A DNA stretch of 64,000 nucleotides, taken from assembly GCF_964204645.1 (NCBI RefSeq), contig NC_134026.1, positions 17,890,150 through 17,954,149 of the forward strand. The letters run 5' to 3'. Position numbers and translations under genes: made by a program. A model generated the notes under the pieces. It saw only the letters and a list, made by a program, of their open reading frames with translations. It was not told the DNA's origin and did not search any database. Origin of the DNA: Tubulanus polymorphus (taxonomy: Eukaryota; Animalia; Nemertea). Shown in pieces: positions 6,175 through 62,069 of the stretch. How positions within the stretch are numbered: position 1 is the first letter of the stretch; the number at the start of each line of letters is the position of its first letter.

Positions 6175-6185
6175 CCAGAAATGCC

Positions 6186-6772: not shown

Positions 6773-7082
6773 CGCGATCAGATTGACAATGTCCTCCGTA
6801 GTACGGATCCTTTTTTAAGATAGCAACATTTTTGTGTTTAAATGCAGGTTTTTTATTATAAAGTATCACAAATGAAATAAATCAACAAAAATTTCTACTA
6901 TTTACAATGATTTATACAACAGCACCAAAGAAATGATTAAAACTACTTAACATGAATAACAATTATTTTTTTCAAGTTTAAAATAGAACATTTTGTATAG
7001 CATATACAATAATCAATTTGGGCAGCACCAACTAAATACGTTCGAAAATCTATGCGGTTATAGTACTTAATAATACAATCAA

Positions 7083-7596: not shown

Positions 7597-7693
7597 ATAA
7601 TCAGATGGCGCGGTAGTCTGTCAGTTCTGTACGAATAGCCTCCGGAGTAATCCGTACAGGTCCGTACGAATAGCCACTTTGTTCAAAGAAACT

Positions 7694-20700: not shown

Positions 20701-22993
20701 GTGAACTTTGATAGGAAAATCCCGCTTTTTTTTTTCTGAGCGACAGAAGTTTTCAGGATAGATTTGTGTAGCGCAAATGATGATCTTTCTGAAAACAAAT
20801 TACATACACAGATAGCCCAAAATCTTCTTCTTTGAATAAAGCAAGAATTAAAAGAATCGGATGAATAATGACGAAGTTATGACCATTTTGAATAGACAAG
20901 CTGCGCTCTGCATCGCACTATACATTGACCCGCGCCGTACTATCACTGAGTTTTTGATCCCGGAATCTTATTTCACACACAGACCAAATCTTTATAGATA
21001 CAACATTTTTGTGTAAATCTGACATTGTTTCCCCTGTTCAGCCACTGAGCCTCATGCTACAATTATTAGAGTGGGGACATCCATTTAGAACATTCAAAAG
21101 TGATAATTAGGTGCATACCGTTATGCAGAGCCATGTTCCCTGTATGCATTTGTATGCATTTTCACAGACCCCCTATCGTGCGAACGTACAAAATGGATGG
21201 TCCCTATTAGATTGAGATCATCTATTCTTCCTATTGATATGGTAATTTTCTCAATTTAGCCCTTAGGTATACAACTACAGATACCGATGCAAAAGAATCG
21301 GCTGCAAAACTTACAAGTCATCTCGTTAATGTGAGGTAAGATGACTGAATGTATGTACTTAGCATGACCGATTACTCATTGTGATTACTTTCGTGAAACT
21401 TAAAGAATGGTTAATATTCAATTGTATGTTTAATTGTTTCATAATCTAATATACAACTACATCCTAAGCTTGTCTTTTCTATTTCAGAGCAATTATCAAC
21501 CATTTCACCCCTAAAGTTGATTCATGGGCTACAGCAAATCATTTATCTTCACTGACTGAAGATCAGGTGAGAAAATTCAGTAATTTATGTCCCCTGTCGC
21601 TCTGCAGAGTTTTTTTATGAGCAGGATTAAGTCTGAACCAGTCGATGGAGTCTTTTGAAATTTTATGGCATGATGTTGGATAATGTCGGGAAGAAGTTAT
21701 TGATTTTGGAGGTTCCACCTTTCAAAATGACCAGCAAACATCCGCATAATAGGTTGCAGTCTGAACCAGTTGATGGAATCTTATGAAATATTGAAATATA
21801 TTATGCATGATTGTCGGATCATACATTAAAGGACCCTATTGATGGGTAAGGTTTCACCTTTCAAGAAGATGGCCAACTGACCGCCAGCTTCATTCTTTAA
21901 ACTACCGGTAGTACACACAATACAGGCTGAACCAGTGGATGTAATCTTTAGAATTTTATGACATGATGTCCAATCATGTAGGGAAGAATTTGGGGTTTGG
22001 CTGGCAGCCATCTTTTTTCTTTAAAATTGCTATTTAAGCAAACATCCTTTTCGAAAGGTTTGGTATATGTATATGTATACTCCTAAGGGAAGCAACATAA
22101 AATATATTGGGTCCATCCAAAATAAAATGGCTGTCAAAAAGGTCATTTTAGAACACATCACTTCTCATGGATTTGGGATTGCCCAGTGTATTGTTAAGAC
22201 CACCAGGAGTTAAATATTGAAATGTATGAATTATTTCAATATTGGTACCTGTGCATACCTTCTAATCAAAATCAACTGCAAAGTTGTAGATCATGACGCT
22301 CTCTATGATTGTTATGTTTTCAAGATCATTGGCATTGAATTTTGAAATTGACAGATTATTGAATATCATTTATATCACTTGCATAGTGGGTATAGAATCC
22401 CTGGACCCCTTGTTTGTATATAGCGACATGGGCATAATGCATTTTGCTTGTTTGTCATAGCATATCATTTATTACTCGCTGTGCTGGTATTTTGTGAATA
22501 CAGTCAACCCCCGATATACCGCCCTCATCGGTGCAGAACGATTTTGGCGTTTTAGAGAGTATGGCAGTATATCGGGAGTGTTTTACTATGTAATTGTATT
22601 GAGATGTACATCGAGAAAACCTGGCGGTAGACGGGGGTGGCGGTAAATGGGAGGACGGTATATCGGGGGTTGACTGTAATTGCCATTTTTGTAACTTAGG
22701 TGCTAGAGGTTGTTAGAACCAACTATGATACATTGACCTTAAAACTACAAGAAAACCTTGATCAGTTTGAAAGATACAGCGAAAAACCAAAAGAATCATC
22801 TTTTTTCACAACCCTGGTATGTATACTGTTATAAGCTTGTTATATTTTCAATAAATATTTCTCATGATTTAACATGTTTAATTCTGTGTTTGTATTTCAG
22901 GTGAGGTCAATTATCGGTGGTGTTCAAAAAACGCTCAATGTTCACTGTATGGATCATGTGGATATCTTAAAGGAGTTTTCAACAATTTCATGA
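8747..22993 (+). CDS. ARMH3: Armadillo-like helical domain-containing protein 3 (C10orf76/UPF0668), 23 coding exons, 695 aa
   Basis: Hand-spliced GT-AG exons: 8747-8884, 8984-9040, 9118-9183, 9368-9448, 9634-9741, 10694-10786, 11401-11562, 11720-11776, 11975-12018, 13822-13882, 13969-14015, 14498-14573, 14790-14859, 16051-16283, 16812-16881, 17182-17242, 17613-17701, 18002-18084, 18375-18501, 21260-21335, 21488-21566, 22700-22816, 22901-22993 (2088 nt, phases consistent). Peptides match ARMH3 as I recall it: [111 protein letters not shown]-terminus LKEFSTIS*. Confidence 0.95.
12242..13237 (+). mobile_element. Internally deleted hAT-like DNA transposon in ARMH3 intron 9, 6-bp TSD
   Basis: TIR cagagatgctag / ctagcatctctg. 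TSD tgatat at 12236-12241 and 13238-13243. Contains the transposase N-terminal ORF. Confidence 0.8.
12706..13200 (+). pseudogene. Truncated transposase N-terminus with zinc finger
   Basis: [10 protein letters not shown]...YIRK...[12 protein letters not shown]...RH...RH resembles the BED/U1-like zinc finger at the start of hAT-type transposases. The ORF runs into the right terminal region and lacks a DDE domain. Confidence 0.65.
15144..15777. mobile_element. hAT-like MITE in ARMH3 intron 13, 6-bp TSD
   Basis: TIR cagggatgagaa / ttctcatctct(t). agaatg duplicated on both sides. Confidence 0.65.
21585..22414. mobile_element. Degenerate HINE/Helentron-like non-autonomous element in intron 21
   Basis: 5' ttatgtcccc start, internal degenerate repeats (ctgaaccagt.gatgga), 3' ...ccctggaccccttgttt. 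A similar 3' end occurs at ~49970. Confidence 0.4.
22501..22676. mobile_element. Tc1/mariner (pogo/Tigger-like) MITE
   Basis: TIR cagtcaacccccgatatacc / ggtatatcgggggttgactg, flanked by TA on both sides. Confidence 0.85.
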
Positions 22994-26181: not shown

Positions 26182-26971
26182 GGCTGGCTTATGTCGACAA
26201 GCAACGCGACGCCTACCGACGCAACTGGGTTTATCGCCGATTAGCGGCAACTAGCGGCCTACGAGAGGCCGCCAGTTGCTCCTCAATCGGTTCGACATAA
26301 GCCGGCTTGTGACGGCAACGCGACGCCTACCGACTTGTCGCAAGCCGTATCCGGCTAGTTGCCCATGTTCTACTTCGGCCTACGGTAGGCGGGCAGTTGC
26401 TTTCGATCGTAGCCGACATAAGCTCATCTGCGACGCGACGGAACTGAGCGCAGGGGCCCAGCCAATGAGAGACCGCATATACATAGTACAAATTATCACC
26501 ACTAGTTAGCGTCATTCGTAATTAGTCATAAACTTTCAAATTCAAGTAGTTCAAAACGTACACCAAACCTTCAGCACGGCAGAGGACTGGACCTGAGATC
26601 TAGAAGCGAAATTGGTAGAATTATGGTGTGAGCGGCCATCTTTATAGATGTCGCTAGCACGTTGTATTCAAAACAGAATTAGAAAGATCAAAGTCTTAAA
26701 GAAATGGCTTTTCTAATAGAAATATATTTCGTAATCATTCAAATTTATTCTCAAAATGCTTATCACGTGACCATTTGAGCCGTTGCAGTTGCTAGTAATC
26801 GCAACCGACATAAGCAGAGAAGCAACTGGGAGGATCTCGTATACCGCTAGTCGGCCTCAGTTGCTGCGAATCGGAGCGCAGTCGACATAAGCTGGGCTGC
26901 GATCGCGGTTGCTCTCAGTTGCGTCGGTAGGAGTCGGTAGGCGTCGCGTTGCTTGTCGACATAAGCCAGCC
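26182..26971. mobile_element. PIF/Harbinger-derived non-autonomous element inserted in the LINE ORF2 end
   Basis: Long perfect TIR ggctggcttatgtcgacaagcaacgcgacgcctaccgac, flanked by ttaa both sides. Internal decayed MADF-like peptide (DWT*DLEAKLVELWCERPSL) at ~26580-26710. Confidence 0.8.
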
Positions 26972-28757
26972 TTAAAGCAATCCACCGACGGCGCACTAAA
27001 AACGGTAGCGAATTCCAGATCTGGATCGTTCGAATGCTAAAAAAGTATTTTCTACAGTTTAATTTTGCTCGTGACAGAAACAATTTAAATGGATGACCGC
27101 GAGTTCTAGTGGACAGTACCCTGGGTAGAAAGTTTGGTGGGGAGGGACATATACCATGTACATATTTGTACGTGTTGATTGCATCACCCCTCATTCTTCT
27201 ATAGACCAGGGTTGGAAGTTTAAGTTGTTTTAGGCGCTGTTCATAGGATAAATTCTGTAATCGGGGAACCATCCTAGTCACTCTCCTTTGGACTGCCTCA
27301 ATAGCGTCAATATCCTTTTGATACTGCAAGGCCCATACTACATTAGCATACTCTAATATCGGTCGAATTAGGGCCTTATACAGAGGTATCAGTGTATCCT
27401 CTTCTAGATAGACGTATGTGTTTTTAATAGCTGATAATGTTCTGTATGCTTTGTTCACTACATTTCGAACTTGTGATTCAAATATCAGTTTATTGTCGAC
27501 GTCTACTCCTAAGTCTCTCTCACACTTGATTTCCTCCAATGGTAAGCGGTTTCCCTCAGCATCGTTCATGTGGTACCTAAAATCCGGTGGGTTTCTACCT
27601 ATTCTCGTTACTTTGCATTTAGCCGTTTGAAATCCCAGTTGCCATTTCTCAGACCATTCTGTCATTCTGTCAGTATTTGCCTGTAAATTCTCACAGTCTT
27701 TGATTTTTTCGATGATGTTATATGCTTTAGTGTCATCTGCAAACATACCCACGCAACAATCTAACACATCTGGCAAATCATTAATATAAATAACAAATAG
27801 TATTGGACCCAAAACCGATCCTTGGGGTATGCCACTAGTGACAGCCGCTGATGATGACGATTGACCATTAATAACCACTTTTTGTTCTCTACCTGACAGA
27901 AAATCATTAACCCATAGACATACCTCGTCCGATAGCCCGTAACTATGCATCTTTTTCAAAAGTCGTTGGTGTGGGACTCGGCCAAACGCCTTTGCAAAAT
28001 CTGTATAAATGACATCTACACTTTTTCCAGAGTCTAGGGCAGTTGTCCAGTTATTTAGTGCTTCCAGCAAGTTCGTCACGCAGTTTTTTCCTTTGACAAA
28101 ACCATGCTGGTGATGACTGATCAAACCATTGATTTCTAAATGCTTCATGATATGATCTCTTATGAAGCTTTCCATTATTTTTGAGCAGATCGATGTAAGA
28201 CTAACTGGTCTGTAGTATACACCCTCGGCTCTATTTCCCTTTCCTTTGTATAATGGGGTCACGTTGGCTTCTTTCCAGTCGTTTGGTACTATACTATTAC
28301 TCAAACTCTTGCGAAATATGAGTGTTAAGGGTTCCGCTATAGCCGAAGCCACTTCCTTTAGCAGTCTTGGATGCAGGCCATCTGGTCCCATACTCTTGAA
28401 CACGTTTAAGCTTGATAGTTTTTTTTCCACTGCCTTGCTTGTAATATGAATGTGCTGAAAAGGCACCAGAATCTGTCTATTTTGCGGTCCAGGGATGATT
28501 GTCAGGTTTTCTGATGTAAACGCTTTAACAAACTGATTATTTAGCAAATCTGCTTTCTCTATTTCATTACTGACCTTAACTGATGTGCCTGGGATAAGGA
28601 GATCAGGTATAGATGACTTAGCTTTTGTTTTGGACTTGGCGTAAGCCCAAAAATCCTTCGGGTTAGTCTTAACTGATGTAGTCAATCCTTTTTCGAAGTT
28701 TCTAACTGCAACCCTGATTTCATTCCTAACCTCTGTTCTGGTTGCCTTGTACTCCAT
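26847..28757 (-). pseudogene. CR1 ORF2 reverse transcriptase portion (C-terminal tail is read-through into the inserted element)
   Basis: GPDGLHP, YRPVSLTS, QHGF, DFAKAF, GIPQGSVLGP, FADD, ERDLGV, TRGH, WNSLP motifs typical of CR1/L2 RT. Confidence 0.9.
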
Positions 28758-28841
28758 ATAATTCGCTCGCGACCTATCGGCCTTGTATTTCTTAAACAGA
28801 CGATGTTTTGTCTTTACCTTGTGAATAATAGTTCTGGATAG

Positions 28842-29775
28842 TCACTTCGGTTTACTTTTATTATTTTGATTCGATCGTTTCGGGATATACTTTTCGCTAC
28901 ATCCATGAAGGCAATCCTTGAAAAATATCCAATTCCCGGCAATATCTAATTTTTGTATCTCATCTGTCATTTTGGCTTCTACAGGTTTTTCATTTATTGA
29001 GCTGTAGTCTGCAGAATCGTACATAAGCCTCACAGTATTAGCGCCTCTAGATGAGTTAGAAGAAAGTGGAGCATTTATTTCGAACAGAAGAACATTGTGG
29101 TCGCTAAGACCGATAGCTGGCAAATGGTCTATCTCCCCGATAATATTTTCGTCACTTACCAAAACTAGGTCTATGAGATTCTCTCTGTCCATACCTATAT
29201 CTTGTCGGTTCCTGTACCATCTGCTCTAGCAGATTATCCCTCATCACATCGGGGAACCTTGCTTCAATATGTGGGTGTTTATGAGTGGTTGATGTATTTG
29301 ACCAATCTATACCAGGGAAGTTGAAGTCACCCATTATAATCGTTCTCTTTCCTGATTTCATATTGCTATTTATAATCTCAAGTAGTTTCGCATCATTTTG
29401 CTCAGTACTATTAGGGCTTCTATATATACAGCCTAAACGCAGCACACCGTTTTCTGTCCTTCGATCAAACCATAGGGACTCCTGAAAATTCTGATCTACA
29501 ATACTGACAGGAATAACCGGAAATTCCTCCTTTATATACACACAAATACCCCTGCCTTCACAATCAATGTTGCTGTAAGGTATGTTATATCCATCTACCT
29601 TCAGATTTTCTGCTTGTAAGCTATATATTGAGTGTTTTGGTTTCACCTCGGTTACACAAATAATATCAGGGGCATGACGTATTGTGACAACTTTTAACTC
29701 GTTCAGTTTATTCTTTAATGAGTCCGCATTCGTATAAAGTATTTTACAATATTTTGGCCCGTTATCTACGGGCAT
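28842..29775 (-). pseudogene. CR1 ORF2 APE endonuclease and linker, split by frameshift (29152-29775 and 28842-29192)
   Basis: YTNADSL, DIICVTE, IYRSP, GDFN, IDLV, SDH endonuclease motifs spread over two frames. Confidence 0.88.
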
Positions 29776-30960
29776 CAGATCGAAAGGGCTGCCCTGCGTT
29801 GTAGTTCTTGTCTTAGCATCTTATATTGTTCTCTGTCTTTCTTCGATATATCAGCTGTAATATGTAATTGTTCTAGTATCGTTTTATCTGTCTCATTTAC
29901 ACTTCTCCTTAATTCGCTATTTTTGCTTAACACTTTTACTGGATCTTCCTTCGACCAGAACAAAACTTTAATAGGTCTTGTCTTTTGTTGTTGGCGAAGA
30001 ACGTAATCGGAATATTTGTCGAATTTTCAAAGTATTTTGGTAAACTGGTTCGACATTTATATCTGGATATGGATTTTTGTCCTGTATTCTAAAACGCAGT
30101 AACTTGAACAGACGTCTAACTTCGTTACTATCATCAACTAATCTATCCTTAAACTCATCCTTCAATGATTCCTCAATCTGATGTATCACCAAATTGAATT
30201 CTCTTTTCTCATTTTCAAGTTTGTCTTTAACATCCTTCAGTTTGCTGTCGATATTCGAGTCCAAATCTTTCATCTTCTGGTCAACTCTTTTGTTGAATTC
30301 TGTAAGTTCCTTGTTCACTACTTCGGTTACTGCTGCATCCACCTCAATTTTGATTGTCTTTTTGACGTCATCTATTTTTTCATTTAAAGCATCAAAGCGT
30401 CTGTGATTATCTAATACTAATCTATTTAATGTGTCAGCAATAGTTTGTATTGTCGCCTCTTGTCTGAGATAAGTCAGTTGAGCTCTAGGCCTACTCCTCT
30501 CAGTCATCTCCTTTGGACGTGCCCCGTTCTCTGTGGTCCTCCCTTTTTTGGATACCTGTTTATCTACCTGACTTACATCAGTAGTTGCTTCTTCAGGATC
30601 TGTAGGCAATCTGGCTCGTTTGGACGTAGTACTATTAACTGGATGGGAATCTGTTCTAATCGCTCCTTGTCCGTCTTTATCGTGATCATCAACCATAGAA
30701 TGCCTCATGTCGTGAAGATTTATTTTACTTTGGGCGACTGCCAAACTCAATATATCATGATTTTCCCCTGTGGCTGTATCATAACTAATCTCTGGTCCCA
30801 CCTCACTTATAGGTCCTCCTCTCGACATAGTAACCAATGGGGATGGGGTTTGTATTATAGCAGGTCTCATCGTATATTGAGATGGATTTACCCTGTCTGG
30901 CATTGCAATAAGATCGAGGGAGGGTACTGTCCCATTTGGATATTCCCGTTGTTGGTCCAT
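29775..30960 (-). pseudogene. CR1 ORF1 (coiled-coil plus L1-type RNA-binding C-terminus), split into 330-aa and 62-aa pieces
   Basis: Coiled-coil followed by NLVIHQIEE and a terminal HITADISKKDRE motif typical of CR1/L2 ORF1. Lies directly upstream of ORF2. Confidence 0.75.
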
Positions 30961-32580
30961 AATATTATAGTTCTTCTATATTCTCTATACCGTGTATATG
31001 CTAAAGATTTAATCTAGCTAATATATGCAAATGAAGACATAGTAGAGTCAAAAGTTATTTACCAATTCCAATCAAGATGGTCTCACGCCTTCATTTAAAG
31101 CTTGTGAGGGCAGTTTGACTTTCCGGGGTACCTTCCCAATATGCGCGCCACACACGTAATTAAAAAGTTACCAAATTCTTTCAAAATCATTTTCCCGGCC
31201 ACTGGCATGGTTCCATCCCCGGCCCGATCATCGTTGTAAAGATGCGCTTCTGATAGACTGCATATGGTATAATATGGACTTGAAAGGTTCCATTATTTTC
31301 ACAGCGATGTGGTCACTGCATTGATCCAGTTTATCATTGAGTTTGTGATTGTATAAAGTTATAAAAACGTCTCAATAAATTATTTTGTCAAAATTAATGA
31401 TTTTTGTGATATATATTTTGGTGCGTTGGGTGCCCTAAACTAAAGTTACGGTGACTCCATCCAGGATAGATAGCCACAATAAAATTTTGCTATCAATTAT
31501 CATATTGCTTCCAGAAAAATTTCAATCTAAAGCCAATTGGTTAAATATGTAATAGGCCTAAGCTTATGTGGTGTTGTTTTTGCAAATCTCCAATGTTTGA
31601 AAAATGTCTCAATATTGCCCACACGACCCGGCTTGGATAGAAACGATGGTGAGAATTACGCCCTTTTCATGTTTTCTTCGGGCACTTGTACACGACGAGG
31701 CAGATAATAATAAAACAAAATGGCACATTTCAGTCGGCCATCGCTACCCTGCCAACATGGGTCCCTGGATCCGCACCAAATGCCCACTGCCTAAAATAAG
31801 CTTTATATAAATGAGAAAAGTAAGTTCAGTTGAGGTCAGTTCAAAATATGTTGCGGATTAACCCATATGGGTCTTAAGTACAATTTTGTAACGCAAAAAT
31901 ATCTTGAGAGTGCGCATAGATTTAAATGTTTTGTCCTACATTTCGGAGCCGCCTAATTATATAAGTTGGATTCATACTCGTAATTAAGACCAATTTGAGG
32001 TGCGTGTTCAGAAAACTTAGAGAAATACCAGTAACACAAAAGATCGACCCTAGCTAAAAATTGATAGACTTAGTTCTAAGAACATTGTGAAAAAAATGTT
32101 CTTAATTGTCGAGGTGGGATTCGAACCCAAACAGTGACGTCACCTGGTGTGAATAATGGCTCCTTTTCGATGCTGCGCGTGCGGTTCAGTGGTTGAGAAT
32201 AAAGGAAGAGGTGCTGGTTTTGTGGCGGATGGTCGAGTAGTGACGCGAGATGACGCAGGCAATGGCGTGGATAAGAGGGTCTCGACTACTACGCTACGGT
32301 ACGGTAGGCATAAGCAGCTAGGGCCCTGGGACCGCATTCACGAAGCAAGTTACGTGTCACGTCAGATTTACGGGTGAACTTACGCCTTACGACGGGCGAA
32401 CTTGCGGGTTGTCTACGTGGTGGTATTCACGAAACTACCCGTAAGCAGTGAGTTCGCACGTAAATTCACCCGTCGTAAGTTCACCCGTAAGTTCACCCGT
32501 AAATCTTACGGCACTTAATAAAGGGCAAATGCCATCAAAATTGTACTCTCCGCGATTTCTTAACCAGAGCAGAAGAAACT

Positions 32581-39149: not shown

Positions 39150-39923
39150 GCCCTGGCGTAATGTTCCTCCTCATCTGGTCGCTCTTCAAATTCATTTCCT
39201 GGTAATGGAAGGCCGTGTAATTGACAAAAGTTGTGAAGTAGCATAGTAACCGCAATCACCGAACTGCATTTTTGATGGCTAAGCATAATAGCAACACATA
39301 AAAATGAGAATTATTAATAAATGAGATCATGAATTCCATTTCAAGCAATGTAATTCATCCCTGGATTTAGATTTAGAATTGAATGCGGTATCTGTTTGTT
39401 AATATCATATACCATCGATTGATACTTGTAATTTGTTGTTTTTACACAGCACAGCATGTTGCACACTTGACATTTAGCGAACTTACCACAATTGTGGCAC
39501 ACCAACCATCGCATCTTCCATCGGCCAAATGTGCATTCAATTTTGCACCTTGTTTTCTTGTGGCTGACGATGTATTTCTGCTCCCCTTCTGTCCTCGGTT
39601 GATCAAACAGTGTCATCGAGTATTTCCGCAGAGGATTTCCACTATCTCCAAGTAAGACACAGTTTTCTGAATGTACCATAATGTCTCTGAGACCGCAATT
39701 GCTCCATATGTGAGCATCATAAGTTGAACCCGGCCAACGCACCACAATATCGAGAAATTTCATTGACGCATCACAAACTCCTTGAATGTTGATGGCGTGA
39801 AAATTCTTCGGCACACGTAGATGTTCTCGTTTACAACGGGCCGTTTAATTCTAACAAATGCGAAAAATGCGCTCTCTCCAAAAATTTCGACGTAACTCGT
39901 TCACGTAGCAAAATTGCAGCCAT
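39150..39923 (-). pseudogene. Harbinger (HARBI1-like) DDE transposase remnant
   Basis: FHAINIQGVCDA...RWPGSTYDA...LLGDSG...HKKTRCKIECTFGRWKMRW. A further exon reads as VIAVTMLHNFC at ~39225-39260. N-terminal part deleted. Confidence 0.85.
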
Positions 39924-40051
39924 TTTTGAAAGTGCGCGTTTGATCGAAGCAACACTGACAAAGGTTTCCACAACAATGCGATTACAATAGTGACGTCGGA
40001 TACCATAGATGATTATCGTGCACTTGACATAGGTTTTCGAAACTTGATAGT

Positions 40052-40573
40052 ATGGATTGTAAGAAAAGACGCAAGTCCAATTGGACGGAAGAAGATTTTA
40101 GTAGACCTCGTAAGCGAGAAATACAATACCTTAAAGACCGCGTTCAACAACGTGATACAAATAAACTGAAGAACGAAGTTTGGCAATGCATTACAAATCA
40201 AGTGAATGCCGCTTCAACCGAGGAAAGGACAGTTTTAGAAACGAAGAAGAAATTCGAAGATTTGAAAGCTGCAGCAAAAAAGAAAGCGAACTGGATCAAG
40301 AACTCTTCTAATCGAACTGGTGGAGGAGAACCAACGTCACTTCAGTTGACACCCGTGGAAGAGGCGATCGTGTTTATGATTGGAAGCGATGCAGTGTATG
40401 GTTTAAAAGGGTTAGATTCCAGCAACTGTACACATGAAGATCATGTCATTTTGGTAGATGCATCCGTGCCGGTTCAGGTAGCCAACGAAGGTCTTACTGT
40501 AAAGCCAACCGATCGATCTACACCGGTAAGTTCGCCAAAAGCCAGAAAAAATTTACAGTCGACAAAACAATAA
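40052..40573 (+). pseudogene. Harbinger Myb/SANT-like (trihelix) DNA-binding partner gene, decayed
   Basis: RKSNWTEE...KNEVWQCITNQVNA...ERTVLETKKKFEDLK...RTGGG, the MSANTD-type motif. Divergent from the transposase, with a decayed coiled-coil exon to ~40868. Confidence 0.8.
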
Positions 40574-44361: not shown

Positions 44362-44536
44362 TGTCTCCTTACACCCCAGATTAACTGTCCAAAAAGGGGA
44401 AGTCGTCTCCTTACACCCCAAACTTCCTGTCCAATATGGGGTAGCCATCTCCTTAAGCCCCAGACTAACTGTCCAATATGGGGAAGTCATCTCCTTACAT
44501 CCTAGACTAACTGTCCAATACGGGGAAGTCGTCTCC
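44362..44536. repeat. 42-bp minisatellite, ~4 copies
   Basis: Unit like gtctccttacaccccagactaactgtccaatatggggaagtc. Confidence 0.85.
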
Positions 44537-45165
44537 GTAAAAATGTGCATGATTTAAACAAATTAACAAACAGAAGTCCAAAGATTAATATGAAGATGAA
44601 TTTCGTTTATTTTACAGTTGATGATGATAAAAAGTGCAAGTGAGTCTAAAGGTTTCACAAGCATTTGATAATTTCAGGCCCACATTTGAATTGTAAAAAT
44701 GCAATACGGTCACATTTAACTTCCAGAGACATGTTAAGTTAATAAAAATGTCATAATAATATTGATGTGCTAATACATGTATAATGCAATACGTTTTACT
44801 AAAATTGAGTGATCAAATGTTGACGAAAAACCAAAAACCATAGCATTAGAAAGTTCAGTATTGTATCAACTGGGCGGCTGATGTGATGATGATCATTTTT
44901 AAAAACAATTTGTCAACAAAGAGAATTTACCTCAAATTGCATATGGATATTTGAAAAATTAGATGCACTGGTACATGCATTTTTTTGAAATACATAGAGC
45001 CTAAAATAATTAACCTAAAATAGTTACGGGGAACTTCGATATCCAAGGCATAAAGTTAGTTGATTTGATATTTTCAATTAACTGAAACTGTCAACTCATC
45101 CGGATAAAAAATACTATAGAAAAAACATTCAGCTATCCCAAGCTATGAAATAAATAGCCTTACTA

Positions 45166-50799: not shown

Positions 50800-53700
50800 T
50801 ATGCTTGAGATGAGGATCGAGCCCCTGATGTTGACAATGTGATTTGGGGGAGTTCAGAATCCCTCACACACACACAACTATGAAACGTCATATGATTGTC
50901 CCTTTCCCTTCTACTCCCTCTCTATCAACTGCAGTGTACTCAAATAAGGATTAAGGTGTATTGCCGTAATGTATTGTCTATCAATTAAAGAATTTAACAC
51001 ACGCGTTACAACACCAGTTTTCCCGAATTACTTGCTCCAATTCGTTTTGAGCTAAATTGATGCAACTAGAATGATACCACCTAACACAATGATTGCAACC
51101 AATCTGAAAGATTTAAAAGGAGATAATTCGCTTTTATGCGGGGGAAATATTTTTTAAGTAATTTACTCAATCAATCACTACCAGCTGTATACATATACTT
51201 TTATGATAAGGCATATATTTCTTGATTCAGAATACATGATTCCGCAAATGATTTCATATGCTTACCCATTGAGATCCATTCTCTCCAGACCGGCAACATG
51301 CCCAACAACTATTTTCTACATCGACTAGCGATGTCTCGCAGCGATGTCTTTGCGCTTTGCTTTAGGATTTACGGCAATTTCTTTGTTTTTTCAGCAGTAA
51401 TTCGGCATACTGTACACGTTTTAGGGAAATAGATATCGAGGTCTTAAGCTTGTCTCTGCACTAAGTACAAGTACAAGTACAAGTATAGGCCTTTATTGTT
51501 CTTTATTATCGGAACTTACATGTATTACGTATATGCCACAGTAATGGCCATCTTGTTGCAAAGGATGAAAGCGTCCCAAATCTTTGATTTTCAGTGCGAT
51601 CTCCCTGTACCGCAGATATCTCCTATTCATTCGAAAGAATAAAGCAACGTACAATGGATACAAAGCTTTTGTATTATCTTCTTTGAGTGAAATTGAGCCC
51701 AGAAAAAGAAAAGATTAAACATGCCTGAAATTATCTCTGGCTTGGAGAGCTGCGTTTTCATTATATCCAAGTGGGTCAATGTAGATGAAATTTCGCAGAC
51801 GAGGTTGAACCACCTGTGAAAAGATAGGAAAGTGTCATCAAATTAAGCGCTCTTATTTAGGAAGGCAAACAAAAAAATTGTACTCACCACTAGAACCCAA
51901 TGACTCCTATTGTTCCTATGATTGTGTCTTTTGATTCGAAACGATCCTGAATTCGGTTTATATATGCAATATGTTCAATGAATATGGGTAATCAAATCAA
52001 TTCTTAGATCAGACATACGCACGCACCCTACCGCATGCACGCACACACAGATACACACATGCACGCACGCAGACACGCACAAGCACCAATTATCAAATTA
52101 TCAGACAGAAAATCAAGATCAAATTACTCAATTAGGTCAAATTACTAAACTCAATCAAAGTCTTCAAATAATTAGTATTAACCAATGCATATTAAATTCA
52201 TTCATTAAACAAAATCTAAAACAAATAAAATGATACCATGAATCCACGAATCTCTTGACGAACCTTCCTTGCTACCGACGATCTTCCGAGGTTATGATTC
52301 AAATAATTCCACGACGCAAAAATACGCACTCAGATACAGAGACACAGACACACTGCCAGTTTTTATAAAACACTAAAAACCACGTGATTAGAAAAATTTT
52401 GATGCCAGGATTTAAATTAGTAACAGTTGTATGAATTTGTATGAGCTATGTTCTGCGAAACATTAAGACTTTTATCTTTCATATTGGCAAATATGTGTGG
52501 GTTGGTTTCTTAGAATTGAGCATTTGTGCCTCTCCTATTAAGGATTTCAATTGTGGCTTGCATGTCTTGAGTTGGAAGGATGTACACATTTTTGTTTTGC
52601 TTTCCCTGTGTTCCAACTAGTTCCAATCTGAAAAAAATATGATGGACTTTAAGAGACTTCTTAGAAACATGTTCTATTGCAATGTATGATTAAGTATGAT
52701 AACTTACTGATCTATTAGTTTCTTTTCTATGTCGGATATGCATTTATTGATAGTCTCCAATTTTTGCCACCTTCATAGTCAATCGGCTTAAGAATCCGAT
52801 TTCACTGCTTCGTTCTTTACTAACACCCTCTGTAATGTTGCTTCAGCATGTGCCTTGAAAGTTGCTGGATGCAGATCTTTTTTCCAAGTTGGTCTTTGTG
52901 CTCTTGCATTTTTACATCAAAATGATTCCTCAAGGTGATTGAATCATTTGATATGGGAAGGAAGGACATTCTATTTAAGCTTTGTGTATTCTGTGTGGTG
53001 AGAGCAATGCTGAATATTTTGTCTGACCATTCACTTAGATGAAGCTTGATGTAGACATCAAAGCATTTGAATGTGTTGTCATCGCCACTCATTCCTCTTT
53101 TAATTTCTGCACATTTTATCAGGTGATTACCAATTCTGAGTGCGTAGCTAGGTATCTCAAATACTTGAATCTGTTCAGAGTTTATTATGTGTCATGCTTC
53201 TTACACTGCGCATTCTTCGGCAGACATCTGCTCTTCTTGGGCTCTTCCTAATTTTTCTATAAGTATCCCTTTAAAGGAGCAAACTCTGCAGTGTCTCCAA
53301 AGCTCTTGTACAACAAAAAATTTAAAACAAAAAATACATGGCAGGAAATCATTGTTTCTTGAACCTGAATGACGTCTTGCTGCAATGATATGCCTTTCAC
53401 CTGTTGCTAAAAACTAGATGTTCTGTTTGAAATTTCTTATGTGTTTCAATTTTGCAAAATGAGGGTTTGCTTCATTTTTAATCTTCCTTAGCAAGAGCCA
53501 GAATGCAGAATCATTGGCGTGCTGGCTGATGTGGTGATTTTGTTTTTGGATATTTATAGAGTTCCTCAAAAAGTAGCATGAAAGTATAGCTTGTTATAAA
53601 GTCGCTATTATTTTGATGTTCTTGCAGTGATTGTACTCTCGGCCCTATAGAAATTGAAATGTATATATAATCTTAAATCCCCCTGGTTATCGAAAGGGTA

Positions 53701-54544
53701 TAAGTGCTTGAAGCTTGCTAAATATTTTTCTTTGTTAATATAAGTTGTCTTTCACTAAGTGATGGCAATTTTCTTCAACATTTCGAGGATAGTTGTACAT
53801 TTTTTGCTTGGAGATAGGTGAAAATGCTAGGCTAAACAAACGAAAAACCATTCAAATGAATGTAAACACAGATTGTGGCATTATTTCACGATATTCCTCT
53901 TCTGTCATTACTGTTTGAGACCTAAGTGCCTCTTCTAGTTAGTTGTCTGCACTACCATCAGTATCACATCTCTAGATAGATCTATTCCAATATTGGTATC
54001 AGAACCTCGGTTGCTCACTCACTGATCAACTATGAGGAAGTGTTTAATTGTCCGACTTCTGTAATACGTCTAACCCGCACTTGCCTGTTGTTATCGGCCA
54101 CCGTGTGGTCCTCCAAATCTGATTACCTAAATCACCGATACCGACAACAAAATACAAAACGCAAACACTGGAATAAAATACTACTTTATATATATATGTC
54201 TATTATTGATAAGGAAGTTACTCAAATTATCAAATTATCAGACAGAGAAAAATAAGATCAAATTACTCAATTATGTCAAATTACTAAACTCAATCAAAGA
54301 CTTCAAATAATTAGAATTAACTAATGCATATTAAATTCATTCATCAAACAAAGTCTAGAACGAATAAAATGATACCACCAATCTCTTGACGAACCTTCCT
54401 TGCTGCTGACGATCTTCCGAGGTTATGATTCAAATAATTCCACGACGCAAAAATACGAACTCAGATACAGAGACACAGAAACACTGTCAGTTTTTATAAA
54501 ACCCCCATGATTAGAAAAATTTTGATACCAGGACTTAAAAATTA

Positions 54545-55700
54545 GTAACAGTTGTATGAATTTGTATGTGCTATGTTCTGCAGAGTCTGCCAAACATTAA
54601 GACTTTTTTCTTTGATATTTGCAAATATGTGTGGGTTGGTTTCCCAGAATTGAGCATTTGTGCCTCTCCTATTAAGGATTTCAATTGTGGCTTGCATATC
54701 TCGAGTTGAAGGATGTACACATGTTTGTTTTGCTTTCCCTGTGTTTCAACTAGTTCCATTCTGAAAAGAATATGATGGAGAATAATAAAGAGACTTCTTA
54801 AAAATATGTTCTATTGCAATGTATGATTAAGTATGATAACTAACTGATCTATTAGTTTCTTTTCTATGTCGGATAAGCACCATGTAATGTCATCATTTAT
54901 TGGTAGTCTCCAATTTTTGCTCCCTTCATAGACATCTCGCTTAAGAACTCCGATTTCACTGCTTCTTAGTTGAATATTAACACCCTCTGTAATGTTGCTT
55001 CAGCGTGTGCCTTGAAAGTTGCTGGATGTGGATCTTTTTTTCAAGTTGGTCTTTGTGCTTTTGCATTTTTACATCAAAATGATTCATCTAGGAGATTGAA
55101 TCATTTGATGTGGGAAGGAAGGACATTCTATTAAAGCTTTGTGTATTCAGTGTGGCGAGAGCAATGCTGAATATTTTGTCTGACCATTCACTTAGATGAA
55201 GCTTGATGTAGGCATCAAGGCATTTGAATGTGTTGTCATCGCCACTCATTCCTCTTTTAATTTCTGCACATTTTATCAGGTGATTACCAATTCTGAGTGC
55301 GCAGCTAGGTATCTCAAATACATGAATCTGTTCAGAGTTTCTTATGTGTCATGCTTCTTACACTGCGCATTCTTTGGCAGACATCTGCTCTTCTTGGGCT
55401 CTTCCTAATTTTTCTATAAGTATCCCTTTAAAGGAGCAAACTCTGCAGTGTCTCCAAAGCTCTTGTACAACAAAAAATTTAAAACAAAAAATACATGGCA
55501 GGAAATCATTGTTTCTTGAACCTGAATGACGTCTTGCTGCAATGATATGCCTTTCACCTGTTGCTAAAACCTAGATGTTCTGTTTGAAATTTCCCATGTG
55601 TTTCAATTTTGCAAAATGAGGGTTTGCTTCATTTTTAATCTTCCTTAGCAAGAGCCAGAATGCAGAATCATTGGAGTGCTGGCTGATGTGGTGATTTTGT
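54545..55700 (-). pseudogene. Decayed tyrosine-recombinase-type (Crypton-like) gene fragment, present in every array unit
   Basis: Minus-strand peptides across frameshifts: KLKHMGNFKQN..VL, ARR..NDFLPCIFCFKF..ELWRHCRVC, PSCALRIGNHLIKCAEIKRG, SEWSDKIFSIALATL..FN..LP, AEATLQRVLIFN, VETQGKQNKHVYIL, NPHIFA. These follow, in order, the motif series I recall for the PTHR33480-type YR proteins of animals. Confidence 0.7.
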
Positions 55701-56713
55701 TTTTCGATATTTATAGAGTTCCTCAAAAAAGTAGCATGGAAATAGCTTGTTATAAAGTCGCTATTATTTTGATGTTCTTGCAGTGATTGTACTCTCGGCC
55801 CTATAGAAATTGAAAGGTGTATATAATCTTAAATCCCCCTGGTTATCGAAAGGGTATAAGTGCTTGAAGCTTGCTAAATATTTTTCTTTGTCTGTTAATA
55901 TAAGTTGTCTTTCACTGAGTGATGGCAATTTTCTTCAACATTTCGAGGATAGTTGTACATTTTTTGCTTGGAGATAGGTGAAAATGCTAGGCTAAACAAA
56001 CGAAAAACCATTCAAATGAATGTAAACACAGATTGTGGCATTATTTCACGATATTCCTCTTCTGTCATTACTGTTTGAGACCTAAGTGCCTCTTCTAGTT
56101 AGTTGTCTGCACTACCATCAGTATCACATCTCTAGATAGATCTATTCCAATATTGGTATCAGAACCTCGGTTGCTCACTCACTGATCAACTATGAGGAAG
56201 TGTTTAATTGTCCGACTTCTGTAATACGTCTAACCCGCACTTGCCTGTTGTTATCGGCCACCGTGTGGTCCTCCAAATCTGATTACCTAAATCACCGATA
56301 CCGACAACAAAATACAAAACGCAAACACTGGAATAAAATACTACTCAATATATATATATGTCTATTATTGATAAGGAAGTTACTCAAATTATCAAATTAT
56401 CAGACAGAGAAAAATAAGATCAAATTACTCAATTATGTCAAATTACTAAACTCAATCAAAGACTTCAAATAATTAGAATTAACTAATGCATATTAAATTC
56501 ATTCATTAAACAAAGTCTAGAACGAATAAAATGATACCACGAATCTCTTGACGAACCTTCCTTGCTGCTGACGATCTTCCGAGGTTATGATTCAAATAAT
56601 TCCACGACGCAAAAATACGAACTCAGATACAGAGACACAGAAACACTGTCAGTTTTTATAAAACCCCCATGATTAGAAAAATTTTGATACCAGGACTTGA
56701 ATTAGTAACAGTT

Positions 56714-56811
56714 GTATGAATTTGTATGTGCTATGTTCTGCAGAGTCTGCCAAACATTAAGACTTTTTTCTTTGATATTTGCAAATATGTGTGGGTTGGT
56801 TTCCCAGAATT
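56714..56811. repeat. 98-bp direct repeat, left copy flanking the GC-rich segment
   Basis: Identical by eye to 58822-58919. It is part of the normal array unit. Confidence 0.9.
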
Positions 56812-56996
56812 CCACCGACTCTGCCCCTCCCGAGGCCAACCTGACGGTCAGGGGCCTCATCTCTAATGCCATCTGCTATAAATACCAAAGCAACCCCCTG
56901 CTCAAAAGGCGCCTGCGCACTGCGCTGAAGGAAGTCTTAATTGGCGGGCGAGAGTTGCGAAACCGCATGGCCGCGCGGAACCAGCCGCAGGTATGA
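56812..56996 (+). CDS. 3' fragment of an unknown gene (..TDSAPPEANLTVRGLISNAICYKYQSNPLLKRRLRTALKEVLIGG..QV*)
   Basis: Open frame from the junction to TGA at 56994-56996, with mostly C/G third positions. Converges on the 505-aa ORF. Confidence 0.5.
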
Positions 56997-57016
56997 GCGC
57001 CCCCTCCCCTTGGCGA

Positions 57017-57076
57017 TTAAAAAAAAAGGATCTGAAGCGGGCACCCTTACGCGCTCTTAGATTTTTTTTTTTTTTT
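57017..57076. terminator. Candidate bidirectional 3'-end signal: A9 run, imperfect hairpin, T15 run
   Basis: attaaaaaaaaaggatctgaagcg...cgctcttagattttttttttttttt lies in the 89-bp gap between two convergent stop codons. Confidence 0.45.
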
Positions 57077-57085
57077 GCACGCCAA

Positions 57086-58603
57086 TTACATGGGCTTGTG
57101 CGGCAGCTGCTGCGGTGACGGCGACAAATTTGGGGCAGGTCCCTGCGCAACTTCCTCGGGAGTCGGCGGGCGATTGCATGCATCGACGCGGCTAAGCAGG
57201 TGGTTCATGGCATTCGTGTTCTGAATTTCACCCTCGAGCAAAAGCGTCTGCTGCACAAGTGCCTCAACAAACTGAGAAATGCGCAGGTGATCTCCATGGG
57301 CGCGCTGCTTAAGGCCCTGCCCATCGGCTGCCGCCTTCTGCTCTTCTTTTTTCTCTTGTGCAGAGGGGGGCAAAAAGGCGCGCAGGTGTTTGCCATGTGT
57401 CAGCACGTATTTGTGGATCGCGCTTTCTATGTATTCCACCAGCGAGGTGGAGTCCTCTGCTAGATAGCTCATCAATATGATCTTCGTGAGCGTGTGGGTG
57501 ATCTTCGTGGAATGCTTGTGCGGCAAAAATGCATGCATCAGCAGGGCCATGAGCTCCTTCTGCACTAGTGTCGACATGAGCTCCACAAATGTCTTTTGGA
57601 TGGGCTGACCCGCGCGCGCCTTAAAAGGGCCACTGCGCTCCAACACAAACTGTAAAAAGAACTCAACGGTCGAAGCCGAGTTAAAGAAGTAGTTCGGCAT
57701 TTCCTCGGTGCAGGATCTGTTAATGGTGTCTAGGACCATTGAGGCCATCTCCTGCGCATGCAAATTCATGCTCGAGTGATCTTGACAGCCGACCAGTTTT
57801 GTGGTCTTCACCGCGATGTCCTCTTTCAGTTTTTGCAGGACGATGATGAATGCATTGATCTCGCCGCGATTGGTGACGTCGATGGGCAGCTGGCGCATTT
57901 CATTTATGACGCGATCGGAGGAGATAATGCGGCTGGTGGAGTCCCCTGATACCAAGTGCATGATTTCATTATAGCAATTAATGGCCAAAAGGCGCTTGTC
58001 AGGATCGTCAATATTCTGAATCGATCTTTCCAGGTATTGAGGCCCAAAGCGGCTGCACACAGAGCGCGCTGCCCACTCTTCTAGCGCCTTTGTATAGATT
58101 AGCAGGGAGCCGCTGTTTTTGTGCGAGGCCATCACATGATTGCACTCAAAGATAGATCGGCGCCTGGCTTCTTCTTTCGTGTACAGGCTCAGGAAAGCCA
58201 TGAACTCGCCCAAGTCGCGATCTGCGATTAACTCATGCGGCTGCGGGCCCATTTCCTTCTGATACGATTTCTTGCTTAAGACTAGCTCGACCGCCGCGCC
58301 GCAGAGCCAATCATAGGCGGCCTGCATCGTAAAGGCCATTTCTGTTTTTTCTATAATTAAGGCGGCGCAGGCGGAGAACACTGCCCGAACGCGGCGCAAT
58401 GCCAGAGTGGACACAGTGCGATGATAGCCGCTCAGGATCGATTGCAAATAAGGCGACTGCTCGCGGCCCCTGATCTCTTCGCGCACCTTTGTGCACATTT
58501 CGCTGCAGATCAGGCCCAGCACTTGGGGAATGCGCGCAATGACCACCACATTAGAAATGGCATTATCCACAAAGGTCTCGAGCAAGCGCACTGCCTCAGA
58601 CAT
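57086..58603 (-). CDS. Uncharacterised intronless 505-aa protein, probably mostly helical with a Pro-rich C-terminal tail
   Basis: Uninterrupted 1518-nt ORF with GC-biased third positions and natural amino-acid composition. I recognise no Rep, RT, integrase, RdRp or P-loop motif. Confidence 0.8.
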   Translation of the reverse strand: MSEAVRLLETFVDNAISNVVVIARIPQVLGLICSEMCTKVREEIRGREQSPYLQSILSGYHRTVSTLALRRVRAVFSACAALIIEKTEMAFTMQAAYDWLCGAAVELVLSKKSYQKEMGPQPHELIADRDLGEFMAFLSLYTKEEARRRSIFECNHVMASHKNSGSLLIYTKALEEWAARSVCSRFGPQYLERSIQNIDDPDKRLLAINCYNEIMHLVSGDSTSRIISSDRVINEMRQLPIDVTNRGEINAFIIVLQKLKEDIAVKTTKLVGCQDHSSMNLHAQEMASMVLDTINRSCTEEMPNYFFNSASTVEFFLQFVLERSGPFKARAGQPIQKTFVELMSTLVQKELMALLMHAFLPHKHSTKITHTLTKIILMSYLAEDSTSLVEYIESAIHKYVLTHGKHLRAFLPPSAQEKKEEQKAAADGQGLKQRAHGDHLRISQFVEALVQQTLLLEGEIQNTNAMNHLLSRVDACNRPPTPEEVAQGPAPNLSPSPQQLPHKPM

Positions 58604-58666
58604 GATCCCTTGAATGAGCTGGCCCCTCTGATAATAACTAAATTGAGCGCCAATGTATTCTTAAAC

Positions 58667-58821
58667 ATGCTGATGGCATATGCTGAAATAGAAATCAGCG
58701 ACGGCACCAGCGCAGAGATCAATGAGACCTATAACCTCTTCGCGCCCGAAGAAGAGGCCTCCGATGCGAGCCTGAACATGAAGACGGCTAAAGGGGTCTG
58801 CACAATAACCAAGGCCGAAAA
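58667..58821 (+). CDS. 5' fragment of an unknown gene (MLMAYAEIEISDGTSAEINETYNLFAPEEEASDASLNMKTAKGVCTITKAEK..), divergent from the 505-aa ORF
   Basis: ATG at 58667. Purine-first, C/G-third codon pattern on the + strand. Truncated at the right junction. Confidence 0.4.
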
Positions 58822-58919
58822 GTATGAATTTGTATGTGCTATGTTCTGCAGAGTCTGCCAAACATTAAGACTTTTTTCTTTGATATTTGCAAATATGTGT
58901 GGGTTGGTTTCCCAGAATT
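58822..58919. repeat. 98-bp direct repeat, right copy
   Basis: Identical by eye to 56714-56811, then continues as normal array sequence (gagcatttgtg). Confidence 0.9.
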
Positions 58920-61900
58920 GAGCATTTGTGCCTCTCCTATTAAGGATTTCAATTGTGGCTTGCATATCTCGAGTTGAAGGATGTACACATGTTTGTTTTG
59001 CTTTCCCTGTGTTTCAACTAGTTCCATTCTGAAAAGAATATGATGGAGAATAATAAAGAGACTTCTTAAAAATATGTTCTATTGCAATGTATGATTAAGT
59101 ATGATAACTTACTGATCTATTAGTTTCTTTTCTATGTCGGATAAGCACCATGTAATGTCATCATTTATTGGTAGTCTCCAATTTTTGCTCCCTTCATAGA
59201 CATCTCGCTTAAGAACTCCGATTTCACTGCTTCTTAGTTGAATATTAACACCCTCTTTAATGTTGCTTCAGCGTGTGCCTTGAAAGTTGCTGGATGTGGA
59301 TCTTTTTTTCAAGTTGGTCTTTGTGCTTTTGCATTTTTACATCAAAATGATTCATCGAGGAGATTGAATCATTTGATGTGGGAAGGAAGGACATTCTATT
59401 AAAGCTTTGTGTATTCAGTGTGGCGAGAGCAATGCTGAATATTTTGTCTGACCATTCACTTAGATGAAGCTTGATGTAGGCATCAAGGCATTTGAATGTG
59501 TTGTCATCGCCACTCATTCCTCTTTTAATTTCTGCACATTTTATCAGGTGATTACCAATTCTGAGTGCGCAGCTAGGTATCTCAAATACATGAATCTGTT
59601 CAGAGTTTCTTATGTGTCATGCTTCTTACACTGCGCATTCTTTGGCAGACATCTGCTCTTCTTGGGCTCTTCCTAATTTTTCTATAAGTATCCCTTTAAA
59701 GGAGCAAACTCTGCAGTGTCTCCAAAGCTCTTGTACAACAAAAAATTTAAAACAAAAAATACATGGCAGGAAATCATTGTTTCTTGAACCTGAATGACGT
59801 CTTGCTGCAATGATATGCCTTTCACCTGTTGCTAAAACCTAGATGTTCTGTTTGAAATTTCCCATGTGTTTCAATTTTGCAAAATGAGGGTTTGCTTCAT
59901 TTTTTATCTTCCTTAGCAAGAGCCAGAATGCAGAATCATTGGAGTGCTGGCTGATGTGGTGATTTTGTTTTTCGATATTTATAGAGTTCCTCAGAAAGTA
60001 GCATGGAAGTATAGCTTGTTATAAAGTCGCTATTATTTTGATATTCTTGCAATGATTGTACTCTTGGCCCTATAGAAATTGAAATGTATATATAATCTTA
60101 AATCCCCCTGATTATCGAAAGGGTATAAGTGCTTGCAGCTTGCTAAATATTTTTCTTTGTATGTTAATATAAGTTGTCTTTCACTGGGTGATGGCAATTT
60201 TCTTCAAAATTTCGAGGATAGTTGTACATTTTTTGCTTGGAGATAAGTGAAAATGCTAGGCTAAACAAACGAAAAACCATTCAAATGAATGTAAACACAG
60301 ATTGTGGCATTATTTCACGATATTCCTCTTCTGTCATTACTGTTTGAGACCTCAGTGCCTCTTCTAGTTAGTTGTGTGCACTACCATCAGTATCACATCT
60401 CTAGATAGATCTATTCCAATATTGGTATCAGAACCTCGGTTGCTCACTCACTGATCAACTATGAGGAAGTGTTTAATTGTCCGACTTCTGTAATACGTCT
60501 AACCCGCACTTGCCTGTTGTTATCGGCCACCGTGTGGTCCTCCAAATCTGATTACCTTAATCACCGATACCGACAACAAAATACAAAATGCAAACACTGG
60601 AATAAAATACTACTCTATATATATATATATGTCTATTATTGATAAGGAAGTTACTCAAATTATCAAATTATCAGACAGAGAAAAATAAGATCAAATTACT
60701 CAATTATGTCAAATTACTAAACTCAATCAAAGACTTCAAATAATTAGAATTAACTAATGCATATTAAATTCATTCATCAAACAAAGTCTAGAACGAATAA
60801 AATGATACCACCAATCTCTTGACGAACCTTCCTTGCTGCTGACGATCTTCCGAGGTTATGATTCAAATAATTCCACGACGCAAAAATACGAACTCAGATA
60901 CAGAGACACAGAAACACTGTCAGTTTTTATAAAACCCCCATGATTAGAAAAATTTTGATACCAGGACTTAAAAATTAGTAACAGTTGTATGAATTTGTAT
61001 GTGCTATGTTCTGCAGAGTCTGCCAAACATTAAGACTTTTTTCTTTGATATTTGCAAATATGTGTGGGTTGGTTTCCCAGAATTGAGCATTTGTGCCTCT
61101 CCTATTAAGGATTTCAATTGTGGCTTGCATATCTCGAGTTGAAGGATGTACACATGTTTGTTTTGCTTTCCCTGTGTTTCAACTAGTTCCATTCTGAAAA
61201 GAATATGATGGAGAATAATAAAGAGACTTCTTAAAAATATGTTCTATTGCAATGTATGATTAAGTATGATAACTTACTGATCTATTAGTTTCTTTTCTAT
61301 GTCGGATAAGCACCATGTAATGTCATCATTTATTGGTAGTCTCCAATTTTTGCTCCCTTCATAGACATCTCGCTTAAGAACTCCGATTTCACTGCTTCTT
61401 AGTTGAATATTAACACCCTCTGTAATGTTGCTTCAGCGTGTGCCTTGTAAGTTGCTGGATGTGGATCTTTTTTTCAAGTTGGTCTTTGTGCTTTTGCATT
61501 TTTACATCAAAATGATTCATCTAGGAGATTGAATCATTTGATGTGGGAAGGAAGGACATTCTATTAAAGCTTTGTGTATTCAGTGTGACGAGAGCAATGC
61601 TGAATATTTTGTCTGATCATTCACTTAGATGAAGCTTGATGTAGGCATCAAGGCATTTGAATGTGTTGTCATCGCCACTCATTCCTCTTTTAATTTCTGC
61701 ACATTTTATCAGGTGATTACCAATTCTGAGTGCGCAGCTAGGTATCTCAAATACATGAATCTGTTCAGAGTTTCTTATGTGTCATGCTTCTTACACTGCG
61801 CATTCTTTGGCAGACATCTGCTCTTCTTGGGCTCTTCCTAATTTTTCTATAAGTATCCCTTTAAAGGAGCAAACTCTGCAGTGTCTCCAAAGCTCTTGTA

Positions 61901-62069
61901 CAACAAAAAATTTAAAACAAAAAATACATGGCAGGAAATCATTGTTTCTTGAACCTGAATGACGTCTTGCTGCAATGATATGCCTTTCACCTGTTGCTAA
62001 AACCTAGATGTTCTGTTTGAAATTTCCCATGTGTTTCAATTTTGCAAAATGAGGGTTTGCTTCATTTTT

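Follow-up and report, generated by a model that had tools for sequence, protein, structure and literature searches.

A foreign, GC-rich insert in a tandem array of the nemertean Tubulanus polymorphus, possibly a rearranged fragment of an undescribed large DNA virus

The window analysed here, a stretch of 64,000 nucleotides from contig NC_134026.1 of Tubulanus polymorphus, carries a host gene (ARMH3), transposable elements and a tandem array, one unit of which is interrupted by DNA of a very different composition (Table 1). The insert occupies 2,010 bp (56812-58821) at a G+C content of 0.531, compared with about 35% in the host. The 300-nt windows on its flanks have a G+C content of 0.28-0.41, and no other 2,010-nt stretch of the window exceeds 0.457, which confirms the sharp jump in composition first noticed by eye. 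The layout described in the original prediction also holds at the level of coordinates: the end of a gene on the plus strand, an 89-bp gap, a 505-aa open reading frame (P0001) on the minus strand, a 63-bp gap and an ATG on the plus strand. The stop-free frame that contains P0001 runs from 58660 to 57086 on the minus strand and is 524 codons long; among 1000 base shuffles of the insert, the longest stop-free frame reached 283 codons (median 123). The fraction of G+C at third codon positions (GC3) is 0.67 in the 505-aa frame and 0.75 and 0.67 in the two gene fragments beside it, against 0.37 in a host exon and 0.40 in the LINE reverse transcriptase.

Table 1. Features of the window and of the insert (window positions; minus-strand features are marked -)
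Feature	Positions	Strand	Remarks
Host ARMH3 exons	9634..21569	+	12 pieces at ≥80% identity by tblastn; gene about 30 kb from the array
ARMH3 exon	16050..16283	+	78 aa, 100% identical to Tubulanus polymorphus ARMH3; next best 84%
LINE	26847..30975	-	ORF1-like coiled-coil frame, endonuclease, 664-aa RT frame; broken between domains
Harbinger-like pair	39341..40573	DDE_Tnp_4 on -, Myb/SANT on +	Pfam
Host tandem array	52088..62069	.	unit about 2.16 kb, one unit interrupted by the insert; self-BLAST
98-bp target duplication, left copy	56714..56811	+	exact match to 58822-58919
3' end of neighbouring gene, 60 codons and stop	56812..56996	+	convergent with the large ORF
Imperfect palindrome, candidate 3'-end signal	57010..57085	+	A9 at 57019-57027, T15 at 57062-57076
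Large intact ORF, P0001	57086..58635	-	Met 58603, 505 aa; similarity to the longer copy reaches 58635
Inversion joint	58635..58640	.	two sides on opposite strands of one longer-copy contig
Flipped 5' piece	58640..58821	+	27-nt leader, ATG 58667, about 52 codons; likely N-terminus of the large gene
98-bp target duplication, right copy	58822..58919	+	exact match to 56714-56811

The array units adjoining the insert are 98.6-99.6% alike and the first unit is 92-95% alike; a further partial copy begins at 63790. The 98-mer duplicated at the two ends of the insert shows no difference among the four array copies found in the window, so that its perfect duplication says little about the age of the insertion. 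Each array unit may carry on its minus strand a decayed tyrosine-recombinase gene, Crypton-like and in broken frames; this reading received no support from Pfam (seven pieces) or from an IMG/VR scan, and Rfam gave no match over 52000-62500. Elsewhere in the window, satellites with periods of 190, 35, 58, 93, 145, 31/61 and 22 bp lie at 2202-7603 and 42626-50760. The host gene had been credited with 23 small exons: that it is split was borne out by tblastn, a search that short exons would escape, and the full count is thereby partly checked, with 12 pieces recovered. Within the ARMH3 span, a 178-aa frame (12664-13200, plus strand) looks hAT-transposase-like by eye and had no above-threshold match in Pfam.

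P0001 had been described as a protein without a recognisable motif, and it proved to match no known host or transposon protein in any collection searched. There was no match in Pfam, PDB sequences or NCBIfam, in a word search of 5.8 billion proteins (lengths 277-884), by phmmer against 1.84 billion protein representatives or by exact look-up, in IMG/VR, metagenomes or phage records, or among 185,579 GTDB species genomes (a search that sees close relatives only). Comparison with PHROGs returned two matches only, at E values of 0.1-0.3, and the best ESM Atlas scores (0.86 and 0.88) lay under the lead threshold. No annotated T. polymorphus protein matched either, though the proteins of this species are in the collection searched. 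The left fragment had no match among longer proteins. Three IMG/VR loci picked up with it agreed at 14 of 29 residues in the vicinity of the seed word, which was put down to chance. For the right fragment there was no IMG/VR match, and its 30-nt leader pattern was absent from metagenomes. Single-sequence AlphaFold models of P0001 were all-helical and of low confidence (pLDDT 39 and 44), and no clear membrane segment is predicted (highest 19-residue hydropathy, 1.8). These models matched nothing in BFVD at E ≤0.001; the best VIA-align hit (Z 8.4) was to generic helical bundles and was set aside. Such misses do not show a new fold.

Other copies were sought in sequencing reads. A second, longer copy, about 83-86% identical to the insert, is present in all four public runs mapped (X1-X4; 80% likeness), which come from two studies, and it extends over at least 6.2 kb. 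Its X1 contigs of 2,886 and 3,360 nt (depth 35.3 and 44.1) jointly span 6,227 nt by coordinates and pass the left piece of the insert by 1,622 nt and the right piece by 2,331 nt. Over the 1.5 kb compared, the longer copy is colinear with the insert and has no introns. Identity is 86, 83, 83 and 86% for the individual pieces; the end of the neighbouring gene (56817-56977) is 86% identical, with third codon positions affected in 3/3 differences examined. The 10 one-base gaps between the copies form five nearby compensating pairs. Among the best-supported 40 of the 287 differences, a non-random subset, third codon positions account for 23 of the 39 that fall in the ORF (P=0.0009), and 21 of the 33 codons touched keep their residue while none becomes a stop. 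Because the differences are mostly silent and the gaps compensate one another, both copies appear to have diverged as working genes. Thus, the original proposal that the insert is a piece of something larger is upheld: it derives from a longer, gene-dense element with coding-type conservation. One stretch of 41 nt (58044-58084) is identical in both copies, which elsewhere differ at about one base in six; this may reflect chance, constraint or conversion.

The longer copy also bears on how the insert is organized. The 3,360-nt X1 contig matches the window at 58055-58635 and at 58640-58814 on opposite strands, with 273 nt between the two matches, and X2 contigs independently give the same 273-nt spacer. 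In the longer copy, ATG 58667 and Met 58603 are therefore on one strand and in one frame, with the ATG 453 nt (151 codons) upstream, which makes the 505-aa ORF the likely C-terminal part of one gene. This gene would likely encode about 656 aa, of which the first 52 codons or so are flipped in the window, the last 516 or so are kept, and about 266 nt in between are missing. The one-gene reading is drawn from coordinates, and in-frame spacing has a chance of 1 in 3. The flipped piece ends some 27-33 nt before the ATG. The view that the insert holds three genes is thus likely wrong, since the 505-aa ORF and the supposed gene start on the plus strand would be rearranged pieces of one; of the claim that P0001 is complete, the intact frame stands and the completeness of the gene probably does not. 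In the window copy, the large ORF lacks its own start and leader, and the insert is therefore probably a passenger.

The insert was found in 3 of the 9 public runs listed (X1-X3, from two samples of one study); reads or contigs were mapped for four of the nine (X1-X4). Two X1 contigs (1,292 and 797 nt; depth 14.4 and 13.3) cover it without differences and extend 30 nt into each flank. Their depth stays at 13-14 across the whole insert and into both flanks, and that of the array sums to about 120-330; X1 is a possible source of the data from which the window was assembled. At the right junction, a bridging X2 contig includes 48 nt of flank and X3 extends 30 nt into it. For the left junction there is the X1 contig only, whose 30 nt of flank are one below the bridging threshold. 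Contigs of X1, X2 and X3 read through the inversion joint with the same letters as the window. X4 (raw genome reads from the second study, about 12 in 100 of which were examined) has a depth of 0 in 11 of the 13 bins lying wholly inside the insert at 90% likeness, and the array is covered. Since the insert is present with its right junction in X1-X3 and near-absent from X4, it is real and likely polymorphic among animals. The same absence supports the earlier view that it was acquired recently, in the sense of a recent or polymorphic insertion. A near-identical tandem array is a setting in which unrelated DNA could be misplaced by misassembly or contamination; the 98-bp duplication could then be an assembly overlap, and the left junction has only its 30 nt of contig to set against this. 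Such an origin is nonetheless highly improbable, because the right junction recurs in three runs from two samples, the inversion joint is recovered in the same three, and the X1 depth shows no step. The original prediction would have fallen had no read spanned a junction; the right junction is spanned, a chimera is not supported, and the insert is supported as foreign, real DNA.

Loose ends in X2 and X3 had been considered as splicing, a reading that was dropped when an X2 loose end was found to contain the reverse complement of the Omni-C bridge, as given in the portion of bioRxiv 10.64898/2026.09.07.749830 available. X2 and X3, which come from one sample, are likely proximity-ligation (Omni-C) DNA libraries. 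The ratio of longer-copy to window-copy depth is 2.87 in X1, 0.86 in X2 and 0.57 in X3; differences in genotype, bias of the libraries or an extrachromosomal load that varies would each account for this spread. Of the X4 reads that align at 80% likeness, 105 of 123 are less than 90% alike and thus belong to the longer copy (30 bins, mean depth 6.4); the X1 longer copy and the X4 reads have all 40 listed differences in common. The X1 contigs of the window copy are unbranched through the host joints and the inversion joint, which means that no identical donor is seen in X1. We infer that the donor was related to the resident longer copy at a divergence of about 17% and was not otherwise seen in X1. 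An infecting strain, or a copy that has since disappeared, is therefore the probable source.

How might the insert have arrived? In the insert, the sequence joined to each host 3' end is complementary to the gene's sense strand and runs towards the gene's 5' end. This arrangement could be produced if the host were nicked at staggered positions 98 bp apart, leaving two host 3' ends that would both be extended on the same sense strand towards the 5' end of the gene: (i) one extension would start in the read-through region past the stop codon and end at 58635, and (ii) the other would start inside the gene and end about 30 nt before the ATG. Joining of these products would follow, as happens when a LINE reverse transcriptase twin-primes. 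We would put even odds on an RNA template and twin priming by such an enzyme, and regard DNA-templated break repair with a template switch as a serious possibility at somewhat under even odds. A LINE with reverse transcriptase and endonuclease domains lies within the same window, and the geometry of the insert matches the account of twin priming in the accessible text of PMC2912911. The 3' end of the insert falls 185 nt inside the neighbouring gene, so that an RNA template would need to be a read-through transcript. No A run is found at the 56811/56812 joint, and this absence of a 3' poly(A) tail counts against twin priming. Also, the target duplications of L1 analysed in that part of PMC2912911 are 5-30 bp with a peak at 14-16 bp, compared with 98 bp here.

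If the one-gene reading is right, the insert shares with twin-primed L1 and mRNA retrocopies an inverted 5' piece whose inner end lies at the target. Loss of sequence at the joint, a flanking duplication and the copying of both pieces from the sense strand are further points in common with the retrocopies described in the available sections of PMC2912911. It differs from them in having no poly(A), a 98-bp duplication and an invertebrate host, and its template would be a foreign read-through transcript. The insert thus works like a 5'-inverted retrocopy and is not a canonical member of that class, two of whose defining features it lacks. A search of the open-licence literature returned no twin-primed endogenous viral element.

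The sequence between the two convergent genes offers a candidate 3'-end signal for both. With an A9 and a T15 run between them, each gene has a T run after its stop codon, and the imperfect palindrome folds better than 199 of 200 dinucleotide shuffles (z -3.2 on the plus strand, -0.5 on the minus strand); when the A and T runs were held fixed, 1 of 1000 shuffles matched it. Hairpins flanked by A and T runs are also the shape of a bacterial two-way terminator. A scan for intrinsic terminators did not call the intergenic hairpin and made two calls elsewhere, against a shuffle mean of 1.9. AATAAA-type signals are expected where the host polymerase transcribes; AATAAA occurs on neither strand of the insert and ATTAAA once. 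The 27 nt before ATG 58667 show no Shine-Dalgarno-like purine run, and an A stands at -3. The mimivirus early promoter motif AAAATTGA is matched at 7 of 8 positions at 58639, one of 3 such sites where 1.0 is expected, which is not above chance. Hairpin 3' ends are the rule in Mimiviridae, where hairpins serve as polyadenylation signals (from the text available of PMC4402537). The polyT terminators of African swine fever virus (ASFV), past which transcription often continues, are concentrated between convergent genes, on both strands, according to the portion of PMC10965686 at hand.

We favour the reading that the insert is a rearranged, endogenised fragment of an undescribed large DNA virus, with a probability of roughly 0.5. 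Because no viral hallmark gene or homologue was found, the argument for a virus is one of architecture: the intronless convergent genes, the hairpin and the T run on each coding strand resemble those of such viruses. The viral origin put forward in the original prediction is therefore sustained as far as foreign, real DNA from a larger element is concerned, and the virus itself is the part that the searches did not bear out. None of the Nucleocytoviricota hallmarks (double jelly-roll capsid, family B polymerase, A32 packaging ATPase, VLTF3, multi-subunit RNA polymerase) is present in the 2-kb insert, and no homology links it to Herpesvirales, nudiviruses or nimaviruses, with the lack of AATAAA noted here as well.

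Two other kinds of resident element could account for the longer copy. It may be a Maverick/Polinton or Polinton-like virus, with the insert a piece of accessory gene from a sister family; this we consider unlikely, though it has real points in its favour. Both studies contain the longer copy, at a depth roughly on a par with that of the host, and in X1 it lies on long, unbranched contigs about three times as deep as those of the window copy, as would be expected of a small number of recent, identical copies. Elements of this kind measure 10-50 kb, are common in invertebrates and carry unknown proteins, as stated in the parts of PMC11131425 and PMC10214139 available, but the 2-kb insert has no similarity to pPolB, integrase, ATPase, protease or capsid, has the single ATTAAA as its nearest approach to AATAAA on either strand, and stands 18 points of G+C above the host. 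The genome of a bacterial endosymbiont of the worms (or of its phage), with the insert an orphan effector-like gene that passed to the nucleus from a related strain, is more doubtful still. It would suit the intronless genes at 53% G+C, the A run, hairpin and T run between convergent genes, X1 contigs of up to 83 kb, and a longer copy that is clonal and bubble-free and whose depth relative to the window copy varies between libraries. Neither GTDB nor the 1.84 billion representatives, phage records, NCBIfam or PHROGs returned a match, an outcome that orphan genes would give in any case; the missing Shine-Dalgarno-like run before ATG 58667 and the failure of the hairpin to be called as an intrinsic terminator also speak against a bacterium.

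An origin within the host appears improbable. Were the longer copy a fast-evolving orphan locus or an unclassified non-viral transposon, with the insert a retrocopy of a paralogue, its presence in both studies with nearly the same letters (40/40 listed differences common to X1 and X4) and the retrocopy-like geometry would follow readily. However, GC3 is 0.67-0.75 in the insert as opposed to 0.37-0.40 in the host exon and LINE, the longer copy is itself intronless over 1.5 kb whereas the host gene of the window consists of small exons, none of the annotated T. polymorphus proteins matched, and the 17%-diverged donor is unseen in X1.

Returning to the viral reading, the insert works like an endogenous fragment of a DNA virus, judged by its architecture, and can be assigned to no virus family, as no hallmark gene was seen. 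With giant-virus endogenous elements (Nucleocytoviricota) it shares intronless, gene-dense, compositionally foreign DNA and orphan genes, as these elements are presented in the available text of PMC10214139. The hairpin and T-run 3'-end signals, as in the accounts of Mimiviridae and ASFV cited above in part, are a further likeness, here a candidate at one site. Unlike those elements, the insert is 2 kb long and 5'-inverted, has no detected hallmark or homologue, and lies in a nemertean; moreover, intronless dense packing is a feature of Nucleocytoviricota that is not specific to the group. The nearest parallel to its T runs is in ASFV and Asfuvirales, where polyT (≥7) follows each gene on the coding strand, as do T15 behind the plus-strand gene and, on the minus strand, T9 behind P0001 (n=2). 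Read-through, which an RNA template would require, is common in ASFV in the sections of PMC10965686 and PMC7163114 available. However, ASFV BA71V has a G+C content of 39% (same portion of PMC10965686) versus 53% in the insert, and ASFV terminators, as far as they are described there, need no hairpin, whereas the insert has a strong one. P0001 showed no similarity to asfarvirus core proteins in the 1.84 billion representatives or the 5.8-billion-protein word search.

Mavericks, Polintons and Polinton-like viruses have terminal inverted repeats and a 6-bp target duplication. The insert, read as an internal fragment of its element, has no core gene, terminal repeat or canonical poly(A) signal, and its G+C is high. 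What it has in common with Mavericks, adintoviruses and Polinton-like viruses is the integration of DNA-virus-like elements with unknown accessory genes into invertebrate genomes; several diverged families per genome are likewise reported in the parts of PMC11131425 and PMC10214139 available.

A fuller version of the favoured reading, which we hold tentatively and with the odds against it, is that a large DNA virus without known relatives persists in T. polymorphus and that a second, 17%-diverged strain was recently captured in the germline through twin priming by a host reverse transcriptase, with a read-through mRNA as template and a 5'-inverted copy in the array as outcome. If so, each host genome in the animals of both studies would be accompanied by roughly one to a few copies of the virus, which would be the first large DNA virus for the phylum Nemertea, and the insert would be a dated trace of the capture of a DNA-virus gene by way of RNA. 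The DNA virome of Nemertea is almost undescribed; the open-licence literature yielded no large DNA virus from this phylum, and in the text available of PMC11097642 the phylum is included only in virome statistics. Endogenous DNA-virus fragments are a known kind of sequence; the source element here eludes every sequence, profile and embedding search tried. The geometry of the insert is a rare case in which the route of capture, by RNA or DNA template, can be argued from the sequence.

The main value of the 2-kb insert lies less in itself than in the longer element to which it points. Longer pieces of that element are already in public runs, so that the question of its origin is directly testable, and the genes of the longer copy would show whether it belongs to a new lineage of viruses, a divergent Maverick or a hidden symbiont. 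Most of the X1 contigs are short; the long unbranched ones, in a set that extends to 83 kb, could be part of this element or come from a symbiont.
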